Below are positions 1,020 through 30,702 of a DNA stretch of 64,000 nucleotides, piece after piece. The notes beneath the pieces were generated by a model. It saw nothing but the letters and a program-made list of their open reading frames with translations, had not been told where the DNA came from and did not search any database. This stretch comes from Escherichia coli O127:H6 str. E2348/69 (GTDB lineage: Bacteria > Pseudomonadota > Gammaproteobacteria > Enterobacterales > Enterobacteriaceae). How positions within the stretch are numbered: the first letter of the stretch is position 1; each line of letters begins with the position of its first letter. The position numbers were made by a program, and so were the translations under genes. Location of the stretch: the NCBI RefSeq assembly GCF_000026545.1, contig NC_011601.1, one strand, 5' to 3'.

Positions 1020-2753
1020 CTAAATTGGCCAGATATTGTCGATGATAATTTGCAGGCTGCGGTTGCCGCGAAACTCGTTGATATCGAGCTTGTAAGCCAG
1101 TTGCACTTCGCGCACACCGTTATCCGGCCAGAGGGCGGTATCGACATTAAAAGCAATCCCGTCCAGCAGCGGACCGCCGCCGACCGGTTCGACCATCACC
1201 TTCAAATGACGCTCGCCCACCAGCCGCTGTTGCAACAGACGGAAATGACCGTCAAACAACGGTTCCGGGAACATTTGTCCCCACGGGCCAGCATCACGCA
1301 ACAGCTGCGCCACTTCCATGGTCATCTCTGCCGCACTTAATGGGCCGTCTGATACCACTTCCCCTTGCAATAAAGAAGGATCTAACCACTCGGTAACCAG
1401 TTCGCCAAAGCGTTGCTGAAAGAGTTCGAATTTATCCTCTTCCAGCGACAATCCTGCCGCCATCGCATGGCCGCCAAACTTGAGCATCATGCCGGGGTAA
1501 AGCGTGTCTAGCCGCTCCAGCGCATCGCGCATATGCAGCCCCTGAATGGAGCGACCGGAACCTTTCAGCGTACCGTCGCCCGCAGGCGCAAAGGCGATAA
1601 CCGGACGGTGAAAACGCTCTTTGATACGCGATGCCAGAATGCCAACAACGCCCTGATGCCATTCAGGGTGATACATTGCCAGCCCACCTGGCAGCGTGTC
1701 GCGGCTACGTTCCAGCTTCTCGCACAGAGTGAGCGCTTCAACCTGCATTCCCTGTTCGATCTCTTTACGTGTTTGGTTTAGTGCATCGAGTTCATTCGCC
1801 AGCACACGCGCTTCGCCAATGTTGTCACACAACAACAGCGCCACGCCAACGGACATATCGTCCAGTCGCCCGGCAGCATTGAGACGTGGCCCCAGCGCAA
1901 AACCTAAATCGCTGGCGGCGAGTTTTTGTGGATCGCGATTGGCCACTTCCAGCAGCGCTTTAATCCCCGGACGGCACTTTCCGGCACGGATGCGACTCAT
2001 CCCCTGCCAGGTCAGAATGCGATTATTAGCGTCCAGCGGCACGACGTCCGCCACTGTCCCCAACGCGACCAGATCCAGCAGTTCTGCCAGATTAGGAATT
2101 GCGATGCCGCGCTCATCAAACCAGCCCTGATCGCGCAAAAAGGTGCGCAGCGCCAGCATCAGATAAAACGCCACACCCACGCCTGCCAGTGATTTCGACG
2201 GGAAATTACAGTCGCGCAAGTTAGGGTTAATGATCGCTTCCGCTGCGGGTAATGTGTCGCCTGGCAAATGGTGATCGGTAACAATAACCGGAATGCCCAA
2301 CGAACGAGCGTGTTCAACCCCCGCATGGGAGGAAATACCGTTATCCACCGTGACAATTAACTGCGCGCCACGGGCATGAGCCTGATCGACTACTTCCGGG
2401 CTTAAGCCGTAACCGTCTTCGAAACGGTTTGGAACCAGGTAGTCGATATTGCTGCAACCAAGCGAGCGCATCGCCAGCACGCTTAGAGCCGTGCTGGTGG
2501 CACCGTCGGCGTCGAAATCACCGACCACAATAATCCGCGTTCCTTCGCGAAAAGCGTTGTAAAGGATCTCAACGGCCTTTTCGACGCCGCTCAGTTGCTG
2601 CCAGGGCAGCATGCCTTTAACACTGCGTTCCAGTTCCTGCGCGCTACGCACACCCCGGCTGGCATATAAACGGCGCAGCAAGGGAGGCAATTCAGCGGGC
2701 AAGTCGGCCGTTTCATCGACTTCACGGCGACGAAGTTGTATCTGTTGTTTCAC
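1020..2753 (-). CDS. recJ: single-stranded-DNA-specific exonuclease RecJ
   Basis: 577-aa ORF with DHH/DHHA1 phosphoesterase motifs; synteny with prfB and dsbC. Confidence 0.93.
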   Translation of the reverse strand: MKQQIQLRRREVDETADLPAELPPLLRRLYASRGVRSAQELERSVKGMLPWQQLSGVEKAVEILYNAFREGTRIIVVGDFDADGATSTALSVLAMRSLGCSNIDYLVPNRFEDGYGLSPEVVDQAHARGAQLIVTVDNGISSHAGVEHARSLGIPVIVTDHHLPGDTLPAAEAIINPNLRDCNFPSKSLAGVGVAFYLMLALRTFLRDQGWFDERGIAIPNLAELLDLVALGTVADVVPLDANNRILTWQGMSRIRAGKCRPGIKALLEVANRDPQKLAASDLGFALGPRLNAAGRLDDMSVGVALLLCDNIGEARVLANELDALNQTRKEIEQGMQVEALTLCEKLERSRDTLPGGLAMYHPEWHQGVVGILASRIKERFHRPVIAFAPAGDGTLKGSGRSIQGLHMRDALERLDTLYPGMMLKFGGHAMAAGLSLEEDKFELFQQRFGELVTEWLDPSLLQGEVVSDGPLSAAEMTMEVAQLLRDAGPWGQMFPEPLFDGHFRLLQQRLVGERHLKVMVEPVGGGPLLDGIAFNVDTALWPDNGVREVQLAYKLDINEFRGNRSLQIIIDNIWPI

Positions 2754-2758
2754 GCGAA

Positions 2759-3469
2759 TTATTTACCGCTGGTCATTTTTTGGTGTTCGTCGAGGAATTC
2801 TTTCATGTCTTTCGGCGGCTGGTAACCTGGAACAAGTGTGCCATTGCTCAGCACAACTGCCGGAGTACCGCTAACGCCAAGCTGGACGCCAAGTGCGTAA
2901 TGGTCGGCAATATCCACGTCGCAGCTGGCTGGTGCGACGCTTTTACCTGCCATCACATCATCAAAGGCTTTGTTTTTATCTTTCGCGCACCAGATAGCTT
3001 TCATTTCTTTCTCTGCATCGCTGTCCAGCCCCTGGCGCGGGAAAGCAAGATAACGCACGGTGATCCCCAGCGCGTTATAGTCTGCCATTTGCTCATGCAG
3101 TTTGTGGCAGTAACCACAGGTAATATCAGTAAACACGGTGATGACGTGTTTTTCCTGCGGCGCTTTATAAACGATCATCTCTTTTTCAAGCGCATTCAAC
3201 TGCTTTAACAGCATCTTATTGGTGACATTGACCGGAGCCGTGCCACTAACGTCATACATTGGCCCCTGAATGATATGTTTACCATCATCGGTGATGTACA
3301 ACACACCGCTGTTAGTCAGAACTGTCTTCATGCCAGCTACGGGCGCGGGCTGAATATCGCTGCTTTTGATGCCCATTTTGGCTAACGTTTGTTGAATTGC
3401 CGCGTCATCAGCCTGAGCAAAGCCTGAAAACGCCGCTAACAAAGTAAACAACATAAAACCTTTCTTCAT
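2759..3469 (-). CDS. dsbC: periplasmic disulfide isomerase DsbC
   Basis: 236-aa ORF with signal peptide and thioredoxin-like CGYC active site. Confidence 0.93.
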   Translation of the reverse strand: MKKGFMLFTLLAAFSGFAQADDAAIQQTLAKMGIKSSDIQPAPVAGMKTVLTNSGVLYITDDGKHIIQGPMYDVSGTAPVNVTNKMLLKQLNALEKEMIVYKAPQEKHVITVFTDITCGYCHKLHEQMADYNALGITVRYLAFPRQGLDSDAEKEMKAIWCAKDKNKAFDDVMAGKSVAPASCDVDIADHYALGVQLGVSGTPAVVLSNGTLVPGYQPPKDMKEFLDEHQKMTSGK

Positions 3470-3493
3470 AAATCTTCCCGTTCTTTTCAGACA

Positions 3494-4390
3494 TCACGCC
3501 CGCGGGTGATGCTGTTGATGAAGTTGCCGCAGACGCTCGGTAGCGACATGCGTATAAATTTGCGTGGTGGAGAGATCACTGTGGCCCAGTAGCATCTGCA
3601 CCACGCGTAAATCCGCACCATGATTTAATAAGTGAGTGGCAAAAGCGTGACGCAACACATGCGGTGACAGCTTTTCGCTGTCGATACCCGCCAGCACGGC
3701 ATAATGTTTAATGCGGTGCCAGAAGGTCTGTCGCGTCATCTGCTGCGCACGCTGGCTGGGAAACAACACGTCAATTGACACACCATTCAACAGCCACGGA
3801 CGCCCATGTTCCAGATAGGTTTCCAGCCAGTAAACCGCCTCTTCACCTAACGGCACCAGGCGCTCTTTGTTGCCTTTACCAATGACCCGCACTACGCCCT
3901 GACGCAGGCTGATATCACTCATTGTCAGCCCGACCAGTTCAGAGACACGCAGTCCGGTAGCATACAACACTTCAAGCATGGCTTTATCGCGTAGCTCCAG
4001 TGGCTGATCAATTAATGGTGCCTGTAATAAACGTTCGACCTGCGCTTCGCTTAAATCTTTTGGCAAACGCTGGGGCAATTTCGGTGAAGCGAGATGCGCA
4101 CTGGGATCATCTTCACGAAACTTTTCGCGATAAAGATACTGGAACAATCGGCGCACTGCACTCAGCAAACGCGCTGAGCTGGTGGCTTTATACCCGCCCT
4201 CCAGCCGTTCTGCCAGTAATGCCTGCAAATCGTCACTTTGCGCCGTCGCCAGCGTCAACCCGCGGTGATGCAACCACTCCACCATCATTGACAGATCGCG
4301 ACGGTAAGCGTTCAACGTATTTTCAGCCAGATTTTTTTCCAGCCACAGAGCATCAAGAAACTGCTCGATGCGTGCCAGATCCTGTTTCAC
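3494..4390 (-). CDS. xerD: site-specific tyrosine recombinase XerD
   Basis: 298-aa ORF with C-terminal recombinase motifs (HxLRHAFATHLL, LGHSDLSTTQIYTH); housekeeping chromosome-dimer resolvase, not a mobile-element integrase. Confidence 0.93.
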   Translation of the reverse strand: MKQDLARIEQFLDALWLEKNLAENTLNAYRRDLSMMVEWLHHRGLTLATAQSDDLQALLAERLEGGYKATSSARLLSAVRRLFQYLYREKFREDDPSAHLASPKLPQRLPKDLSEAQVERLLQAPLIDQPLELRDKAMLEVLYATGLRVSELVGLTMSDISLRQGVVRVIGKGNKERLVPLGEEAVYWLETYLEHGRPWLLNGVSIDVLFPSQRAQQMTRQTFWHRIKHYAVLAGIDSEKLSPHVLRHAFATHLLNHGADLRVVQMLLGHSDLSTTQIYTHVATERLRQLHQQHHPRA

Positions 4391-4501
4391 TTGCGCCCCT
4401 TATGGTCACTCATTTGATCCATTATGCCTTATTGTGCCGTGACTAAAGCGATTCTGATACACTAGCCGCAAAAGCCACAGCAGAATCGAGAAGCTTACGT
4501 T

Positions 4502-5023
4502 ATGAATATGGGTCTTTTTTACGGTTCCAGCACCTGTTACACCGAAATGGCGGCAGAAAAAATCCGCGATATTATCGGCCCAGAACTGGTAACCTTACAT
4601 AACCTCAAGGACGACTCCCCGAAATTAATGGAGCAGTACGATGTGCTCATTCTGGGTATCCCGACCTGGGATTTTGGCGAAATCCAGGAAGACTGGGAAG
4701 CCGTCTGGGATCAGCTCGACGACCTGAACCTCGAAGGTAAAATTGTTGCGCTGTATGGGCTTGGCGATCAACTGGGATACGGCGAGTGGTTCCTCGATGC
4801 GCTCGGTATGCTGCATGACAAACTCTCGACCAAAGGCGTGAAGTTCGTCGGCTACTGGCCAACGGAAGGATATGAATTTACCAGCCCGAAACCGGTGATT
4901 GCTGACGGGCAACTGTTCGTGGGTCTGGCGCTGGATGAAACTAACCAGTATGACCTTAGCGACGAGCGTATTCAGAGCTGGTGCGAGCAAATCCTCAACG
5001 AAATGGCAGAGCATTACGCCTGA
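4502..5023 (+). CDS. fldB: flavodoxin 2
   Basis: 173-aa ORF with flavodoxin fold signature ([17 protein letters not shown]). Confidence 0.9.
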
Positions 5024-19609: not shown

Positions 19610-19793
19610 ATTTCTCTGAGATGTTCGCAAGCGGGCCAGTCCCCTGAGCCGATATTTCATACCACAAGAATGTGGCGCTCCGCGGTTGGTGAGCATGCTC
19701 GGTCCGTCCGAGAAGCCTTAAAACTGCGACGACACATTCACCTTGAACCAAGGGTTCAAGGGTTACAGCCTGCGGCGGCATCTCGGAGATTCC
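19610..19793 (+). ncRNA. ssrS: 6S RNA
   Basis: Sequence ATTTCTCTGAGATGTTCGCAAGCGGGCCAGTCCCCTGAGCC...GGAGATTCCC read directly; matches the 6S RNA primary sequence I recall; zapA-ssrS-fau context. Confidence 0.85.
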
Positions 19794-20416: not shown

Positions 20417-20469
20417 GGGCGACACACCTGCATCGCCCTGATTGACATCGTTGATTCTTTAACCTAATT

Positions 20470-20616
20470 TAGTGAGTAAGGGTAAGGGAGGATGACTCCT
20501 CCCCTGAGACTGACTGTTAATAAGCTGGGAAACTTATGAGTAACAGTACAATCAGTATGATGACAAGTCGCATCATAACCCTTCTCCTTCAAGCCCTCGC
20601 TTCGGTGAGGGCTTTA
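20470..20616 (+). ncRNA. sibC: Sib-family antitoxin sRNA (SibC-like), antisense to ibsC
   Basis: Fully overlaps ibsC on the opposite strand; GGGTAAGGGAGG...CCTCCCCTGAGACTGACTG motif; ends in hairpin AGCCCTCGCTTCGGTGAGGGCTTT. Boundaries approximate. Confidence 0.5.
20517..20576 (-). CDS. ibsC: Ibs-family type I toxin, 19-aa hydrophobic peptide
   Basis: Minus-strand ATGATGCGACTTGTCATCATACTGATTGTACTGTTACTCATAAGTTTCCCAGCTTATTAA translates to MMRLVIILIVLLLISFPAY*. Confidence 0.6.
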   Translation of the reverse strand: MMRLVIILIVLLLISFPAY

Positions 20617-20804: not shown

Positions 20805-22037
20805 TTAGTACAGCAGACGGGCGCGAATGGTACCCGGAATAGCTTTCATTGCCTGCAGCGCTTTTTCGGCAACGTCTTCGTCGGCTTCAATATCAATAAC
20901 TACATAACCCATCTGGGCGGAAGTTTGCAGATATTGCGCGGCGATGTTGACGCCCTGCTCGGCAAAAATTTTGTTGAGCGCAGTCAGCACACCCGGACGG
21001 TTTTCGTGGATGTGCATCAGACGACGACCACCGTGCAGTGGCAGCGAGACTTCCGGGAAGTTCACCGCAGAGAGCGTTGAGCCATTGTCAGAATACTTGA
21101 TCAATTTACCCGCAACTTCCAGGCCGATATTCTCCTGCGCTTCCTGAGTCGAACCGCCAATGTGTGGCGTCAGAAGGACATTGTCGAATTCACACAGCGG
21201 AGAGGTAAATGGATCGCTGTTGGTCGCCGGTTCCGTCGGGAATACGTCGATTGCCGCCCCCGCCAGATGTTTGCTCGCCAGCGCGTCGCACAGCGCTGGA
21301 ATATCCACCACAGTACCGCGCGAAGCATTAATCAGCAGCGAGCCGGGTTTCATTAGCGAAATCTCTTTCGTGCCCATCATATTTTTGGTGGACGGATTCT
21401 CTGGTACATGCAGACTCACCACATCGCTCATATTCAGCAGGTCAGAAAGATGCTGTACCTGAGTGGCGTTGCCCAGCGGCAGTTTGTTTTCAATATCATA
21501 AAAGTAAACATACATTCCCAGCGATTCAGCCAGAATGCCCAATTGCGTACCAATATGACCATAGCCGATGATACCCAGCTTTTTGCCGCGCGCTTCAAAA
21601 GAACCCGCCGCCAGTTTGTTCCACACGCCACGGTGCGCTTTAGCATTGGCTTCCGGCACGCCGCGCAATAGCAGCAGCAGTTCGCCAATCACCAGCTCCG
21701 CAACAGAGCGCGTATTTGAGAACGGTGCGTTAAATACCGGGATCCCGCGCTTTGCCGCCGCATCCAGATCAACCTGGTTTGTTCCGATACAGAAACAGCC
21801 AATAGCGACCAGTTTTTCTGCGGCGTTGATCACGTCTTCAGTCAGATGGGTACGGGATCGCAGGCCGATGAAGTGGGCATCGCGGATGGATTCTTTTAAT
21901 TGTTCATCATCCAGCGCGCCTTTGTGAAATTCGATGTTGGTGTAACCAGCTGCACGAAGGCTTTCCAGCGCCTTTTGGTGCACGCCTTCTACCAGCAGAA
22001 ACTTAATCTTGTCTTTCTCCAGCGATACCTTTGCCAT
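20805..22037 (-). CDS. serA: D-3-phosphoglycerate dehydrogenase
   Basis: 410-aa ORF with NAD-binding GxGxxG (GIIGYGHIG) and C-terminal ACT domain. Confidence 0.95.
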   Translation of the reverse strand: MAKVSLEKDKIKFLLVEGVHQKALESLRAAGYTNIEFHKGALDDEQLKESIRDAHFIGLRSRTHLTEDVINAAEKLVAIGCFCIGTNQVDLDAAAKRGIPVFNAPFSNTRSVAELVIGELLLLLRGVPEANAKAHRGVWNKLAAGSFEARGKKLGIIGYGHIGTQLGILAESLGMYVYFYDIENKLPLGNATQVQHLSDLLNMSDVVSLHVPENPSTKNMMGTKEISLMKPGSLLINASRGTVVDIPALCDALASKHLAGAAIDVFPTEPATNSDPFTSPLCEFDNVLLTPHIGGSTQEAQENIGLEVAGKLIKYSDNGSTLSAVNFPEVSLPLHGGRRLMHIHENRPGVLTALNKIFAEQGVNIAAQYLQTSAQMGYVVIDIEADEDVAEKALQAMKAIPGTIRARLLY

Positions 22038-22292
22038 TTACCCAATCCTGTCTTTTGAAATGTTGTGTGCGGATTTGCATCCGCCTTTCAACATATCAAA
22101 AAATAATATTGCGGCAATATGAACGTTTGCGTCGCGATGTTGAGGAAATATCACGCAAAAGTATTTCTTGGATGAATATGCTGGTTTAGAAGATTTATTT
22201 AGAGCAATCGACAATTGCCAGGTAAAAACGTGACACATGTCACCAAATTTAATGAAGAGAATTTTTTTAACGGGGGAGGTTCCCCCGTCAGA

Positions 22293-22952
22293 TCATTTCA
22301 CAATAGTTTTGACACCGTCAGGTGTGCCAATCAGCGCAACGTCCGCGCCACGGTTAGCAAACAAACCAACAGTCACCACGCCAGGAATCGCATTTATGGC
22401 GTTTTCCATCGCTATCGGGTCAAGGATTTCCATGCCGTGGACGTCGAGGATCACGTTGCCGTTATCGGTCACTACGCCCTGACGGTATTCCGGACGACCG
22501 CCCAGTTTCACCAGCTGGCGCGCCACTGCACTACGTGCCATCGGGATAACTTCTACTGGCAGCGGGAATTTGCCCAGAATATCAACCTGCTTGGAAGCGT
22601 CTGCAATACAGATAAATTTTTCCGCAACCGAAGCAATGATTTTTTCACGGGTCAGCGCCGCGCCGCCGCCTTTGATCATTTGCATGTGGCCGTTGATTTC
22701 ATCTGCGCCATCAACGTAGATGCCAAGGCTGTCGACTTCGTTGAGATCAAAAACGTGAATGCCGAGGCTTTTCAGTTTTTCAGTGGAAGCATCTGAACTG
22801 GAAACGGCCCCTTCAATCTGGCCTTTCATTGTACCGAGTGCGTCAATAAAGTGTGCGGCGGTGGAACCTGTACCTACACCAACAATGGTGCCGGGCTGAA
22901 CATACTGAAGTGCCGCCCATCCTACTGCTTTTTTCAATTCATCCTGCGTCAT
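22293..22952 (-). CDS. rpiA: ribose-5-phosphate isomerase A
   Basis: Track ORF extended; Met at 22952 (MTQDELKK) gives 219 aa; RpiA motifs (GVGTGST). Confidence 0.92.
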
Positions 22953-22987
22953 GATCGTTTCGCCTGTGGTATGAAATTTCACACGCA

Positions 22988-23265
22988 TTATACTCTAAAT
23001 AATTCGAGTTGCAGGAAGGCGACAAGAGAGTGACAAATTCGTCAGGAACGAATTTGCCCAGCCGCAGGCTGGCCTTCGGTGAGAGACATGGATGTCTCTC
23101 ATTAATCCCCAGGAGCTTACAGAAGTAAGTGACTGGGGTGAGCGACAAATCCGCATGGAGCGGATTTGAACGCTGCTTGCAGCGGCCCCGTAAGGGGTGA
23201 GGCCCATGGATGGGCCGAATAACCCGCAGACGCAGCACATGCAACTTGAAGTATGACGAGTATAT
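22988..23265. repeat. ERIC (IRU) element, expanded form with two internal hairpin insertions
   Basis: Core matches the inverted copy at 30578-30702 (…AAGTAAGTGACTGGGGTGAGCGA…, terminal TATACTC/GAGTATA); two extra blocks at about 23033-23102 and 23145-23223. Confidence 0.8.
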
Positions 23266-23279
23266 ACAAAAAAAGCGAT

Positions 23280-23558
23280 TCAGACCCCGTTGGCAAGCCG
23301 GGTGGTTAACTCATCCATAAAATATCGCGCAATGGCGGGCATCCCCTTTCGCCCCGCAAATAAAGCATACAACGGTCTGGGGATGCTGCTCCACGGTGCG
23401 AACAGGCGCACCAGTTCCCCGTTAGCAAGCCCCTGTTTACAGGCAAACTGAGGCAATAACGCCACACCATTCAACACAACCAGGGCGCGAACTCGCTGAG
23501 CGAAATGCATTAGCGCAAATCCCTGATCTTTTAAGCTGCGCGTTAACCACTGATACAA
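23280..23558 (-). pseudogene. yqfE: LysR-family regulator fragment (C-terminal effector domain only)
   Basis: 92-aa ORF matching only the C-terminal part of LysR-type regulators; no N-terminal HTH region. Confidence 0.6.
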
Positions 23559-23650
23559 ATGTTACCCGCCAACGACTTCGGTATATGCAACCCGACACAA
23601 AATTGTGTCATAGTGCAGGAAAAAGCATTTACCAGGAGCAGACAACAGCA

Positions 23651-24544
23651 ATGAAACGCCCGGACTACAGAACATTACAGGCACTGGATGCGGTGATACG
23701 TGAACGAGGATTTGAGCGCGCGGCACAAAAGCTGTGCATTACACAATCAGCCGTCTCACAGCGCATTAAGCAACTGGAAAATATGTTCGGGCAGCCGCTG
23801 TTAGTGCGTACCGTACCGCCGCGCCCGACGGAACAAGGGCAAAAACTGTTGGCGCTACTACGCCAGGTGGAGCTGCTGGAAGAAGAGTGGCTGGGCGATG
23901 AACAAACCGGTTCGACTCCGCTGCTGCTTTCACTGGCGGTCAACGCCGACAGTCTGGCGACGTGGTTGCTTCCGGCGCTGGCTCCTGTGTTGGCTGATTC
24001 GCCTATCCGCCTCAACTTGCAGGTAGAAGATGAAACCCGCACTCAGGAACGTCTGCGCCGCGGCGAAGTGGTCGGCGCGGTGAGTATTCAACATCAGGCG
24101 CTGCCGAGTTGTCTTGTCGATAAGCTCGGTGCGCTCGACTATCTGTTCGTCAGCTCAAAACCGTTTGCCGAAAAATATTTCCCTAACGGCGTAACGCGTT
24201 CGGCATTATTGAAAGCACCTGTGGTCGCCTTTGACCATCTTGACGATATGCACCAAGCCTTTTTGCAGCAAAACTTCGATCTGCCCCCAGGCAGCGTACC
24301 GTGCCATATCGTTAATTCTTCAGAAGCGTTCGTACAACTTGCTCGCCAGGGCACCACCTGCTGTATGATCCCGCACCTGCAAATCGAGAAAGAACTGGCC
24401 AGCGGTGAACTGATTGACTTAACGCCGGGGCTATTTCAACGCCGGATGCTCTACTGGCATCGCTTTGCTCCTGAAAGCCGCATGATGCGTAAAGTCACTG
24501 ATGCGTTGCTCGATTATGGCCACAAAGTCCTTCGTCAGGATTAA
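23651..24544 (+). CDS. argP: LysR-type transcriptional regulator ArgP (IciA)
   Basis: Met at 23651 ([15 protein letters not shown]) gives 297 aa; N-terminal HTH; divergent from the yqfE fragment. Confidence 0.92.
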
Positions 24545-24747
24545 TCCATCAAATAATGCCTGATAGCACATATCAGGCATTATCCTCACTTCTTTTTGTA
24601 TTCCTTGAATCACATCACAAAATAGACAAATCTCAGGCGGCAAAAAACGACGTCTGAATGCATTTTTTTTGCTGGCGACAAACCCACGTAAAAAGCTCAC
24701 CGTAAGCGCAAATACCCTCATTTTGATTGCGTTTTACGGAGCAAATA

Positions 24748-25830
24748 ATGTCTAACGTGCAGGAGTGGCAACAGCTTGCCAACAAGGAATTGAGCCGTCG
24801 GGAGAAAACTGTCGACTCGCTGGTTCAGCAAACCGCGGAAGGGATCGCCATCAAGCCGCTGTATACCGAAGCCGATCTCGATAATCTGGAGGTGACAGGT
24901 ACCCTTCCTGGTTTGCCCCCCTACGTTCGTGGCCCGCGTGCTACTATGTATACCGCCCAACCGTGGACCATCCGTCAGTATGCTGGTTTTTCCACAGCAA
25001 ATGAGTCCAACGCTTTTTATCGCCGTAACCTGGCCGCCGGGCAAAAAGGTCTTTCCGTTGCGTTTGGCCTTGCCACCCACCGTGGCTACGACTCCGATAA
25101 CCCACGCGTGGCGGGCGACGTCGGCAAAGCGGGCGTCGCTATCGACACCGTGGAAGATATGAAAGTTCTGTTCGACCAGATCCCGCTGGATAAAATGTCG
25201 GTTTCGATGACCATGAATGGCGCAGTACTACCAGTACTGGCGTTTTATATCGTCGCCGCAGAAGAGCAAGGTGTTACACCCGATAAACTGACCGGCACCA
25301 TTCAAAACGATATCCTCAAAGAGTATCTTTGCCGCAACACCTATATTTACCCGCCAAAACCGTCAATGCGTATTATCGCAGACATCATCGCCTGGTGTTC
25401 CGGCAACATGCCGCGATTTAATACCATCAGTATCAGCGGTTACCATATGGGTGAAGCGGGTGCCAACTGCGTGCAGCAGGTAGCATTTACGCTCGCCGAT
25501 GGGATTGAGTACATCAAAGCAGCAATCTCCGCCGGGCTGAAAATTGATGACTTCGCCCCTCGCCTGTCGTTTTTCTTTGGCATTGGCATGGATCTGTTTA
25601 TGAACGTCGCCATGTTGCGTGCGGCACGTTATTTATGGAGCGAAGCGGTCAGTGGATTGGGCGCACAGGATCCGTATAACAACGTTATCCGCACCACCAT
25701 TGATCATTGTGCACATCCCATGTATCGGGATTATCTGCATCGCTATCTGGAAAATGCGCCTGGCGGACATATTCACCACGATCTTCAGCAATATGCTGAA
25801 GCATCGTGGCGGTATAACGATGATTTCTGA
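24748..25830 (+). pseudogene. scpA: methylmalonyl-CoA mutase (Sbm/ScpA), N-terminal fragment only
   Basis: N-terminal ~325 aa match mutase sequence (…[31 protein letters not shown]); the frame then departs from mutase sequence near 25702 and stops at 25830; the C-terminal B12-binding domain is absent. Confidence 0.75.
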
Positions 25831-26656
25831 TTGAATAAAGATATTCCTGCATATACATCGGCCTGTGCGGCGCATCAAAATATTTCAGCGTTGCCGGATT
25901 CACCAGTCGCCAGGCAAAATGCGGGATCACCGTCAGAAAATGTCCGCGCTCCACGGCGCTGATTTTGGCCATAAAACTGTAGGGACGATAAATAATGGTG
26001 GGATTGATCCCACAAGGTCGCATATTCGCATCAATCATTGCTTCGAAGTTGGCCCGGTTCTGAAAGCGCATTTGTAGCCAGGGTAGCTCCTGAAGCAACT
26101 CTTGCTCTTGTCGCTCTTCATAACGACGAGAAACGAGAAAGCCCAATCGCAGCGGCGGTAGTTCACTGATAGTCAGGTTTTCCAGTTCCTGAACTCGTGC
26201 AGATACATGCTGTGGGGAGATAATAAAATCTAACTGACGGTCAAAAAGATTATCGATAACGCCATTTGCGCTGAACTCAACTGGCTGGGCGGTCACGCCT
26301 TCGTACTTATCTCCGAGACTAATCAACTGATCAAAAATAATGGTCGGATAAGTATTATCTATGCCTATCACAATGTCTCGTGAACGACGTCCTGAGTTAT
26401 GGATTTCATTATCAATCGCAGAAAGTCGTTGATAAACCGGGAACAGTTTTTGATACAGTTCCTGTCCGGCTTTATTGAGGCTGATATTATTATCTTTGCG
26501 GGTAAATAGCGTATAGCCAATTTGTTCTTCCAGCGCGGCAATGCTTTTGCCAAATCGCGAAGCCGTCATATGGATTTTTTCTGCCGCCCGGGCAATATTA
26601 TTGGTTTGCGCTAATAAAATGAAATTGCGCATCTTTTTCGAAATAAAAATGTCCAT
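25685..26656 (-). CDS. ygfI: LysR-family transcriptional regulator (YgfI-like)
   Basis: 323-aa ORF with N-terminal HTH ([21 protein letters not shown]); its 3' end overlaps the truncated sbm ORF by 146 bp; start could be the second Met at 26632. Confidence 0.75.
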
Positions 26657-26813
26657 CCCCCCTCTCCCGCATCCTTGTCCGCTTAACCGTTTCAGTCAGC
26701 CTATCCTTGATGAAACCGCGAGCAAAGATAGGTGATTACGTCATGGTTTTACAGAAAAAGGAGACAATATCGGGTAAAGACATTAGCCCGACGAATACGT
26801 CGGGCTACAAGTA

Positions 26814-27554
26814 TTAATGTGCAGCAGGTGTTTTAGCGGGGGGTTGATCCACAGGTTCTAACTGGAAGACTACATCGACCTGATCATCAAACTGAATAGC
26901 GGCCTGCTCGTAAGTTTCCTGTGCGGACACCGGTGCAGCATCAGCTTTCATCATCCGCACCATTGGGCTGGGCTGATAGTTGGAAACATGATAACGCACG
27001 CTATATACCGGCCCCAGTTTGCGATTAAAGCCATTCGCCAGTTCCTGCGCCTGATGAATCGCGTTATCAATCGCTGCCTTACGCGCTTTGTCTTTATAGG
27101 CATCCGGCTGCGCCACGCCCAGCGACACAGAACGAATTTCGTTAAGACCCGCCTTTAGCGCGCCGTCCAGCAAGGAATTCAGTTTATCTAACTGACGGAG
27201 CGTGACTTCCACCGTTCTCACTGCGCGGTAGCCTTTCAGGATACTTTTACCATCCTGATAATCATAATCTGGCTGAGTGCGTAAGTTCGCTGAGCTGATA
27301 TCTTTTTTCGCGATCTGATTGAGCTCAAGGAAGGAAATGTATTGTGCGACGCGCTCATCTGCCTGTTTCTTGGCAGTAGCGGCATCCTTCGCGGCCACGT
27401 TAACTTCAATCGCAAGAGTGGCAATGTCTGGCACCGCATCCACGCTTGCCGTACCGGAGGTGACAATATGCGGTCCATCCGGCAATTCGTTAGCCTGCGC
27501 TGCCATCCCGCTAATACCCATTAATGCCGCCAGGGCGATAACTTTGAACTTCAC
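26814..27554 (-). CDS. yggE: periplasmic SIMPL/DUF541 family protein YggE
   Basis: 246-aa ORF with signal peptide. Confidence 0.88.
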   Translation of the reverse strand: MKFKVIALAALMGISGMAAQANELPDGPHIVTSGTASVDAVPDIATLAIEVNVAAKDAATAKKQADERVAQYISFLELNQIAKKDISSANLRTQPDYDYQDGKSILKGYRAVRTVEVTLRQLDKLNSLLDGALKAGLNEIRSVSLGVAQPDAYKDKARKAAIDNAIHQAQELANGFNRKLGPVYSVRYHVSNYQPSPMVRMMKADAAPVSAQETYEQAAIQFDDQVDVVFQLEPVDQPPAKTPAAH

Positions 27555-30577: not shown

Positions 30578-30702
30578 TATACTCGTCATACTTCAAGTTG
30601 CATGTGCTGCGTCTGCGTTCGCTCACCCCAGTCACTTACTTATGTAAGCTCATGGGATTCACTCTCTTGTCGCCTTCCTGCAACTCGAATTATTTAGAGT
30701 AT
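30578..30702. repeat. ERIC (IRU) element, canonical ~125 bp form
   Basis: Imperfect palindrome with core CCCCAGTCACTTACTTATGTAAGCTCATGGGATTCACTCTCTTGTCGCC; inverted relative to the copy at 22988-23265; lies 27 bp upstream of the fbaA start. Confidence 0.8.

Follow-up and report, generated by a model that had tools for sequence, protein, structure and literature searches.

The scpA locus of enteropathogenic Escherichia coli O127:H6 E2348/69 is very probably (about 93%) a decaying pseudogene locus left over from the scpA(sbm)-argK-scpB-scpC operon, which converts succinate to propionate in a cobalamin-dependent way. When the locus was compared with that of K-12 MG1655, 4,415 bp were found to be lost in three deletions of 63, 4,273 and 79 bp, hereafter called Δ1, Δ2 and Δ3. 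In K-12 the gene order is argP, scpA (sbm, 714 aa), argK, scpB, scpC and srsR(ygfI), just as the original prediction had stated, and scpC converges on srsR so closely that the two stop codons overlap by 4 bp. In E2348/69 the order serA-rpiA-yqfE'-argP is followed by the remnant and then by srsR(ygfI)-yggE-argO-mscS. The remnant lies at the same site, between argP and srsR/ygfI, as the K-12 'sleeping beauty mutase' operon scpA(sbm)-argK(ygfD/meaB)-scpB(ygfG)-scpC(ygfH). The upstream neighbor argP anchors the synteny and carries zero nonsynonymous differences from K-12. NCBI's PGAP annotation of E2348/69 labels srsR and the pieces of scpA and scpC as pseudogenes. The original prediction, made from the sequence alone, had put the loss at about 5 kb, which was an overestimate, and had listed argK, scpB and scpC as absent; argK and scpB are indeed gone, but scpC keeps 82 bp of its 3′ part.

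Breakpoints were placed by BLAST and exact-match extension against K-12, and the resulting features are collected in Table 1. The 5′ part of the remnant is collinear with positions 2363-4777 of the K-12 locus (L003) at 97.1% identity, the identity being about 97% over the first 923 nt of scpA, and the exact match runs to position 25670 of the window (the whole 64,000-nt stretch of E2348/69 DNA that was analysed). The original prediction had noticed that the open reading frame (ORF) after argP begins with a genuine mutase N-terminal region, and residues 1-309 of the frame at 24748-25830 match K-12 ScpA. It had also proposed that mutase sequence ends at about 25702, and the alignment moves this by a single nucleotide, to 25703. 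Between Δ1 and Δ2 a 39-bp island of scpA survives (25665-25703), which is a 100% match to K-12 L003 4831-4869. The scpC fragment lies in a region that matches K-12 L003 9128-9224 at 95.9%, and at the protein level it aligns to ScpC residues 443-474. Where relatives lack Δ3, the corresponding scpC piece carries the PGAP label 'acetyl-CoA hydrolase, missing N-terminus'.

Table 1. Features of the scp remnant and its flanks in E2348/69 (positions in the window)
Feature	Position	Strand	Description
argP (iciA)	23651..24544	+	Intact upstream neighbor, PGAP annotation; anchors synteny with K-12
scpA (sbm) 5′ remnant	24748..25670	+	K-12 scpA nt 1-923; ScpA residues 1 to ~308, part of the substrate-binding barrel
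Δ1 junction	25665..25674		63-bp in-frame deletion within scpA; ScpA residues 310-330 (21 aa) lost
scpA island between Δ1 and Δ2	25671..25703	+	K-12 scpA nt 981-1019 counting the repeat
srsR read-through extension	25685..25777	-	30 unrelated codons and stop, antisense to the scpC/scpA remnants
Δ2 junction	25689..25703		4,273-bp deletion, scpA nt 1019 to scpC nt 1341
scpC 3′ fragment, 82 bp	25704..25785	+	K-12 scpC nt 1341-1422 of 1479, in frame with the scpA remnant
Δ3 junction	25777..25785		79-bp deletion between perfect 9-bp direct repeats
srsR (ygfI) native codons 1-293 of 298	25778..26656	-	290/293 residues identical to K-12 SrsR
Chimeric ORF tail	25786..25830	+	14 unrelated codons and stop, from the srsR antisense strand; compared with the native ScpC C-terminus

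Alignment to the K-12 locus, the check proposed along with the original prediction, located the breakpoints and microhomology at all three junctions. Δ1 lies between direct repeats of the form ACAGGA(C/T)CCG, in which 6 bp are exact and 10 bp match with one mismatch. It accounts for the conserved segment that had been suspected to be missing between the motifs GAQDP and YNNVIRT. The Δ2 repeats form an imperfect 15-bp direct pair (13/15 identical), CCGCACCACCATTGA in scpA and CCGCACTATCATTGA in scpC, with the exact microhomology CATTGA at 25698-25703. This deletion removed the 3′ half of scpA including the B12-binding domain, all of argK/meaB and scpB, and nt 1-1340 of scpC, so that, unlike K-12, E2348/69 lacks 90% of ScpC in addition to the B12-binding half of ScpA and the whole of ArgK/MeaB and ScpB; scpA and scpC were fused in frame. 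The Δ3 repeats are perfect (CACGATCTT), and this deletion took the last 57 nt of scpC together with 17 nt at the 3′ end of srsR (its stop and the five codons before it). A junction overlapping the 3′ end of ygfI had been envisaged. The overlap with ygfI is real, but at the main junction scpA meets scpC, and it is the separate 79-bp Δ3 that removes the ygfI stop. The suspicion that more than one event had occurred was correct.

All three junctions are seamless, and each retains one copy of a 6-15-bp direct repeat. We found neither an insertion sequence (IS) nor foreign DNA at any of the three junctions; scpA joins scpC directly and scpC joins srsR directly. The locus combines truncated collinear homology with seamless short-repeat junctions, as a pseudogene remnant would, and it lacks the IS or terminal repeat that an IS-mediated deletion would have at its junction. 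The junctions read as the signature of replication slippage or another microhomology-mediated form of illegitimate recombination rather than of IS activity. Slipped-strand, RecA-independent deletion between short direct repeats leaves the same seamless one-repeat junctions as those of Δ1, Δ2 and Δ3, and mechanistically nothing about them is unusual. Each of the three deletions would have arisen by slippage or microhomology at a short direct repeat. The proposed order of events starts from an intact operon, which would have suffered Δ1 and Δ2 (old and widely shared), then Δ3 (later and polymorphic), with extra lesions accumulating in other lineages.

Only about 33 bp separate the Δ1 junction from that of Δ2, a spacing that would also fit an origin of both in one complex template-switch event, in which the polymerase jumped twice and left a 33-39-bp scpA island behind. 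Co-occurrence of the two deletions is near-perfect (1,110 genomes have the Δ1 junction and about 1,113 the deleted arrangement), and no genome among the matches listed carries Δ1 alone. On the other hand, strains HH97 and HH45 have a Δ2-type deletion of 4,273 bp without Δ1, so Δ2 can arise and persist by itself. Each junction has its own ordinary direct repeat, and two slippages fixed before the clade diversified fit the data equally well. A single double-jump event is a serious possibility, although we do not favor it.

HH97 and HH45 have a K-12-like background, and their deletion lies at the same imperfect 15-bp repeat. The HH97 junction (L004 2500-2530) keeps the scpC-side variant of the repeat, CGCACTATCATTGA. 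Their deletion is either an independent occurrence at the same repeat or the outcome of a different mismatch resolution or correction. These observations suggest that the 15-bp repeat pair is a recurrent deletion site. An independent operon loss of another kind was seen in the poultry isolate MB51 (L006 3577-4510), in which scpA breaks off against IS1A at nt 576 and the deletion extends into srsR, of which only a 162-bp HTH fragment is left. This IS1-mediated deletion has IS1 at its breakpoint, in contrast to the IS-free junctions of E2348/69.

The remnant ORF starts with the ATG at 24748, stops at 25828-25830 and encodes 360 aa, composed of ScpA residues 1-309, ScpA residues 331-340, ScpC residues ~453-474 and 14 junk residues. 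The same 360-aa chimera, identical in sequence, is present in the EPEC O55:H6 strain 2362-75. In a Pfam scan, the chimera matched MM_CoA_mutase (PF01642) over model positions 1-276 of 512 (E = 1e-126) and weakly at 300-316, and no B12-binding domain was found in it; the DNA coding for that domain falls inside Δ2. The remnant covers about 55% of the catalytic (barrel) domain of the mutase, residues 310-330 and everything after residue ~340 having been deleted, and nothing of the operon partners argK/meaB, scpB and scpC is left except the 82 bp of scpC. With about 55% of the barrel, and with neither a B12 domain nor partner enzymes, the chimera is predicted to be unable to work as an active mutase or to catalyze the pathway. 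Judged from these gene contents, E2348/69 would have lost the route from succinate through methylmalonyl-CoA and propionyl-CoA to propionate, and the original prediction of a lost pathway is borne out by the base-level alignment to K-12. K-12 keeps the full operon, and a B12-binding domain could not be reconstructed from the E2348/69 sequence; either a deletion-like arrangement in K-12 or a recoverable full-length mutase would have argued the other way.

Some features of the chimera are mildly unexpected under pure decay. The ORF is still open in E2348/69, and 11 of 12 loci examined that bear the deletion have it open. The reading frame is preserved by Δ1, by the Δ2 fusion and by a further 39-bp deletion found in relatives (Δ39), an outcome with a chance of about 1 in 27. 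In addition, gene callers report the exact chimeric protein on 42 contigs. One could suppose from this, and from a dN/dS below 1, that the ScpA'-'ScpC chimera is an expressed new protein that has been retained by selection. This is highly improbable, however. The encoded protein has only about 55% of the barrel, broken by a 21-aa gap, and a frameshift of the type found in SCU-204 truncates it to 93 aa. Its C-terminus varies among lineages with the presence or absence of Δ3, 13 more residues are missing in 946 genomes, and the parental operon is itself barely expressed in K-12 (PMC3850637). The in-frame alignment of the scpA and scpC pieces is an arithmetic coincidence, arising by chance.

To assess selection on the remnant, dN/dS was calculated over scpA codons 1-305. 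The value was 0.21 (9 nonsynonymous and 13 synonymous differences) between E2348/69 and FDAARGOS_1259, both of which have the deletion, and 0.04-0.11 when the remnant was compared with K-12 or HH97, where the gene is intact or was recently so. A value of 0.21 is raised but still below the neutral 1, and weakly suggests relaxed constraint. Part of the remnant's divergence may have been imported by recombination from functional alleles, because the SNP pattern is mosaic and the counts are small.

To determine how widespread the loss is, we counted the arrangements in 5,426 complete genomes of E. coli. Of these, 4,276 contain 80% or more of the K-12 operon. The operon interior is absent genome-wide in 1,115, and these genomes therefore have no relocated or second copy of the operon; 1,113 show the same collinear deleted arrangement as E2348/69. 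A 61-mer spanning the Δ1 junction was found in 1,110 of the 5,426 genomes, and a Δ2-type deletion without Δ1 in two (HH97 and HH45). The combined Δ1 and Δ2 loss is thus found in about 20% of complete E. coli genomes (~1,110), and the survey of related genomes suggested with the original prediction shows that the deletion is not specific to one strain. Carriers that we recognised by name, and take to be phylogroup B2, are E2348/69, UTI89, Nissle 1917, LF82, NRG 857C, NC101, ATCC 25922, NU14 and DSM 30083, and the assignment of the ~1,110 genomes to B2 is by such recognised strain names only. The locus is an ordinary gene-loss polymorphism, for which public records already annotate pseudogenes here and in more than 1,000 other genomes; our literature search found no paper on a lineage-wide (B2) scp deletion or on its junctions.

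The short arrangement could in principle be an assembly or sequencing artefact, or it could be ancestral, with the K-12 operon inserted later, but the only thing that speaks for either is the bare difference in length. Three E2348/69 / O127:H6 assemblies made independently agree at 100% over 24500-26800, and the Δ1 and Δ2 junctions are found in more than 1,100 genomes. Truncated scpA and scpC fragments are both present and can derive only from a full operon that was deleted. Full-length ScpA of 714 aa also occurs in Citrobacter, Shigella and other Escherichia. We regard both versions as practically inconceivable.

Loss from an intact operon, the reading we adopt, is accompanied by further decay in related lineages. 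Other B2-type loci annotated as pseudogenes by PGAP (FDAARGOS_1259, UTI89, LF82 and Nissle 1917) have Δ1 and Δ2 junctions identical to those of E2348/69. Δ39, the 39-bp in-frame deletion, removes 13 further residues; it was found in 946 genomes, including UTI89, LF82 and others, and is absent from E2348/69. Genomes of the SCU-204 type carry a 1-bp insertion whose frameshift cuts the ORF to 93 aa. Together with the polymorphic Δ3, these are additional disabling lesions of a kind expected in a locus that has lost its function. The Δ3 junction 51-mer (E <= 1e-12) was present in 55 of the 5,426 genomes, including LF82, NRG 857C, NC101 and M-17, so that E2348/69 shares the junction with LF82, NC101 and 50 others. 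Two earlier ways of counting Δ3 were set aside. A 120-bp junction query had made it seem private to E2348/69, which the 51-mer ruled out, the carriers having been masked by identity ranking. Counting through the 89-bp removed segment left 541 genomes without a match and was dropped as unreliable, because in many intact genomes this segment is only 95.5% identical and a megablast match has to start from an exact 28-mer.

Δ39 and Δ3 occur in all four possible combinations. E2348/69 differs from its relatives in lacking Δ39 and in the haplotype that carries its Δ3. SNP haplotypes at the locus form a mosaic: immediately left of Δ3, E2348/69 is K-12-like and the LF82 group is B2-typical, whereas the alleles on the right are common to both. 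Δ3 lies on at least two haplotypes, which may reflect either recurrent deletion at the 9-bp repeat or a single origin followed by recombination.

The convergent regulator is affected as well. As predicted, the ORFs of the LysR gene (25685-26656) and of the remnant (24748-25830) overlap by exactly 146 bp, because Δ3 removed the srsR stop codon and caused a 30-codon read-through. The resulting srsR ORF encodes 323 aa; K-12 and those B2 strains that do not have Δ3 encode a 298-aa SrsR, and the LF82 allele specifies 312 aa. Both Pfam domains of the regulator are kept (HTH_1 at residues 8-65 and LysR_substrate at 91-283), and the native C-terminal DGTSH is replaced by 30 unrelated residues. PGAP classifies the gene in E2348/69 as a pseudogene with a 'missing C-terminus', and the original annotation of this genome gave the 323-aa product as a regulator (CAS10716.1). 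Most relatives retain the native srsR stop, and a large group has instead a nonsense change at codon 92 (S92*, TCA to TAA), seen in Nord8 (L005 3174-3176) and CCUG 73778 (L010) and called 'internal stop' by PGAP. This exact allele is present in 552 of the 5,426 genomes. SCU-204 has a 6-bp in-frame deletion in srsR.

Among the genomes without the scp operon, more than half have a changed srsR, through only a few clonal events. The swapped C-terminus produced by Δ3 (55 genomes, on at least two haplotypes), S92* (552 genomes) and the SCU-204 6-bp deletion amount to about three or four events, with genome counts inflated by one heavily sampled clone and in a comparison that covers the genomes without the operon. 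From this pattern one could propose that repeated independent damage to srsR follows loss of scp, either with the value of SrsR tied to the scp operon, by regulating or sensing it, or with B2 shedding the SrsR stationary-phase stress regulon. We consider this proposal unlikely. In K-12, SrsR activates genes for stationary-phase stress, biofilm formation and H2O2 tolerance, and the scp genes are not mentioned in the SrsR target screen (PMC9181523).

Other features of the neighborhood were recorded in the same analysis. A 231-bp LysR substrate-binding-domain fragment, yqfE (23280-23510, minus strand), lies between rpiA and argP and is a pseudogene in the K-12 annotation and a short CDS in that of E2348/69. 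It is a second LysR remnant at the locus, kept in all strains examined, with a frameshift in 13TMH22. A 268-bp insertion (22993-23260) lies between rpiA and yqfE and is found in neither K-12 nor the B2 strain FDAARGOS_1259. Inside it, at 23107-23144, is the presumed ERIC/IRU repeat core CCCCAGGAGCTTACAGAAGTAAGTGACTGGGGTGAGCG; another such core is found at 30620-30657 (minus strand). The insertion looks like an enlarged, strain-variable ERIC element. An Rfam scan of 22000-27000, the ERIC-like insertion included, gave zero matches, and a scan for promoters and terminators returned nothing informative. Elsewhere in the window, 6S RNA (ssrS, 19610-19793), a Sib antitoxin RNA (20442-20592) and the sRNA ES036/CssrF (43127-43169) scored above the Rfam gathering threshold, as expected for the region, and no tRNA genes were found in the 64,000 nt.

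Loss of the operon was probably close to neutral. The scp operon of K-12 has been described as "hardly expressed", and cobalamin (B12) is neither synthesized nor required by E. coli (PMC3850637). With the operon gone, E2348/69 and about one-fifth of sequenced E. coli, the recognised members of which are B2, would lack the B12-dependent route from succinate to propionate. This would be relevant to strain-specific metabolic models and to attempts to "awaken" the Sbm pathway in hosts other than K-12. For genome annotation, the locus shows that fragments of two genes joined in frame can pass for a long open "methylmalonyl-CoA mutase" ORF, and that the "YgfI" of E2348/69 owes its 323 aa to read-through and is not a natural long isoform. 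The nested series of Δ1/Δ2, Δ39, Δ3 and S92* provides convenient lineage markers within B2. SrsR differs among E2348/69, K-12 and the S92* group, which could matter when strains are compared for stationary-phase stress and biofilm regulation.
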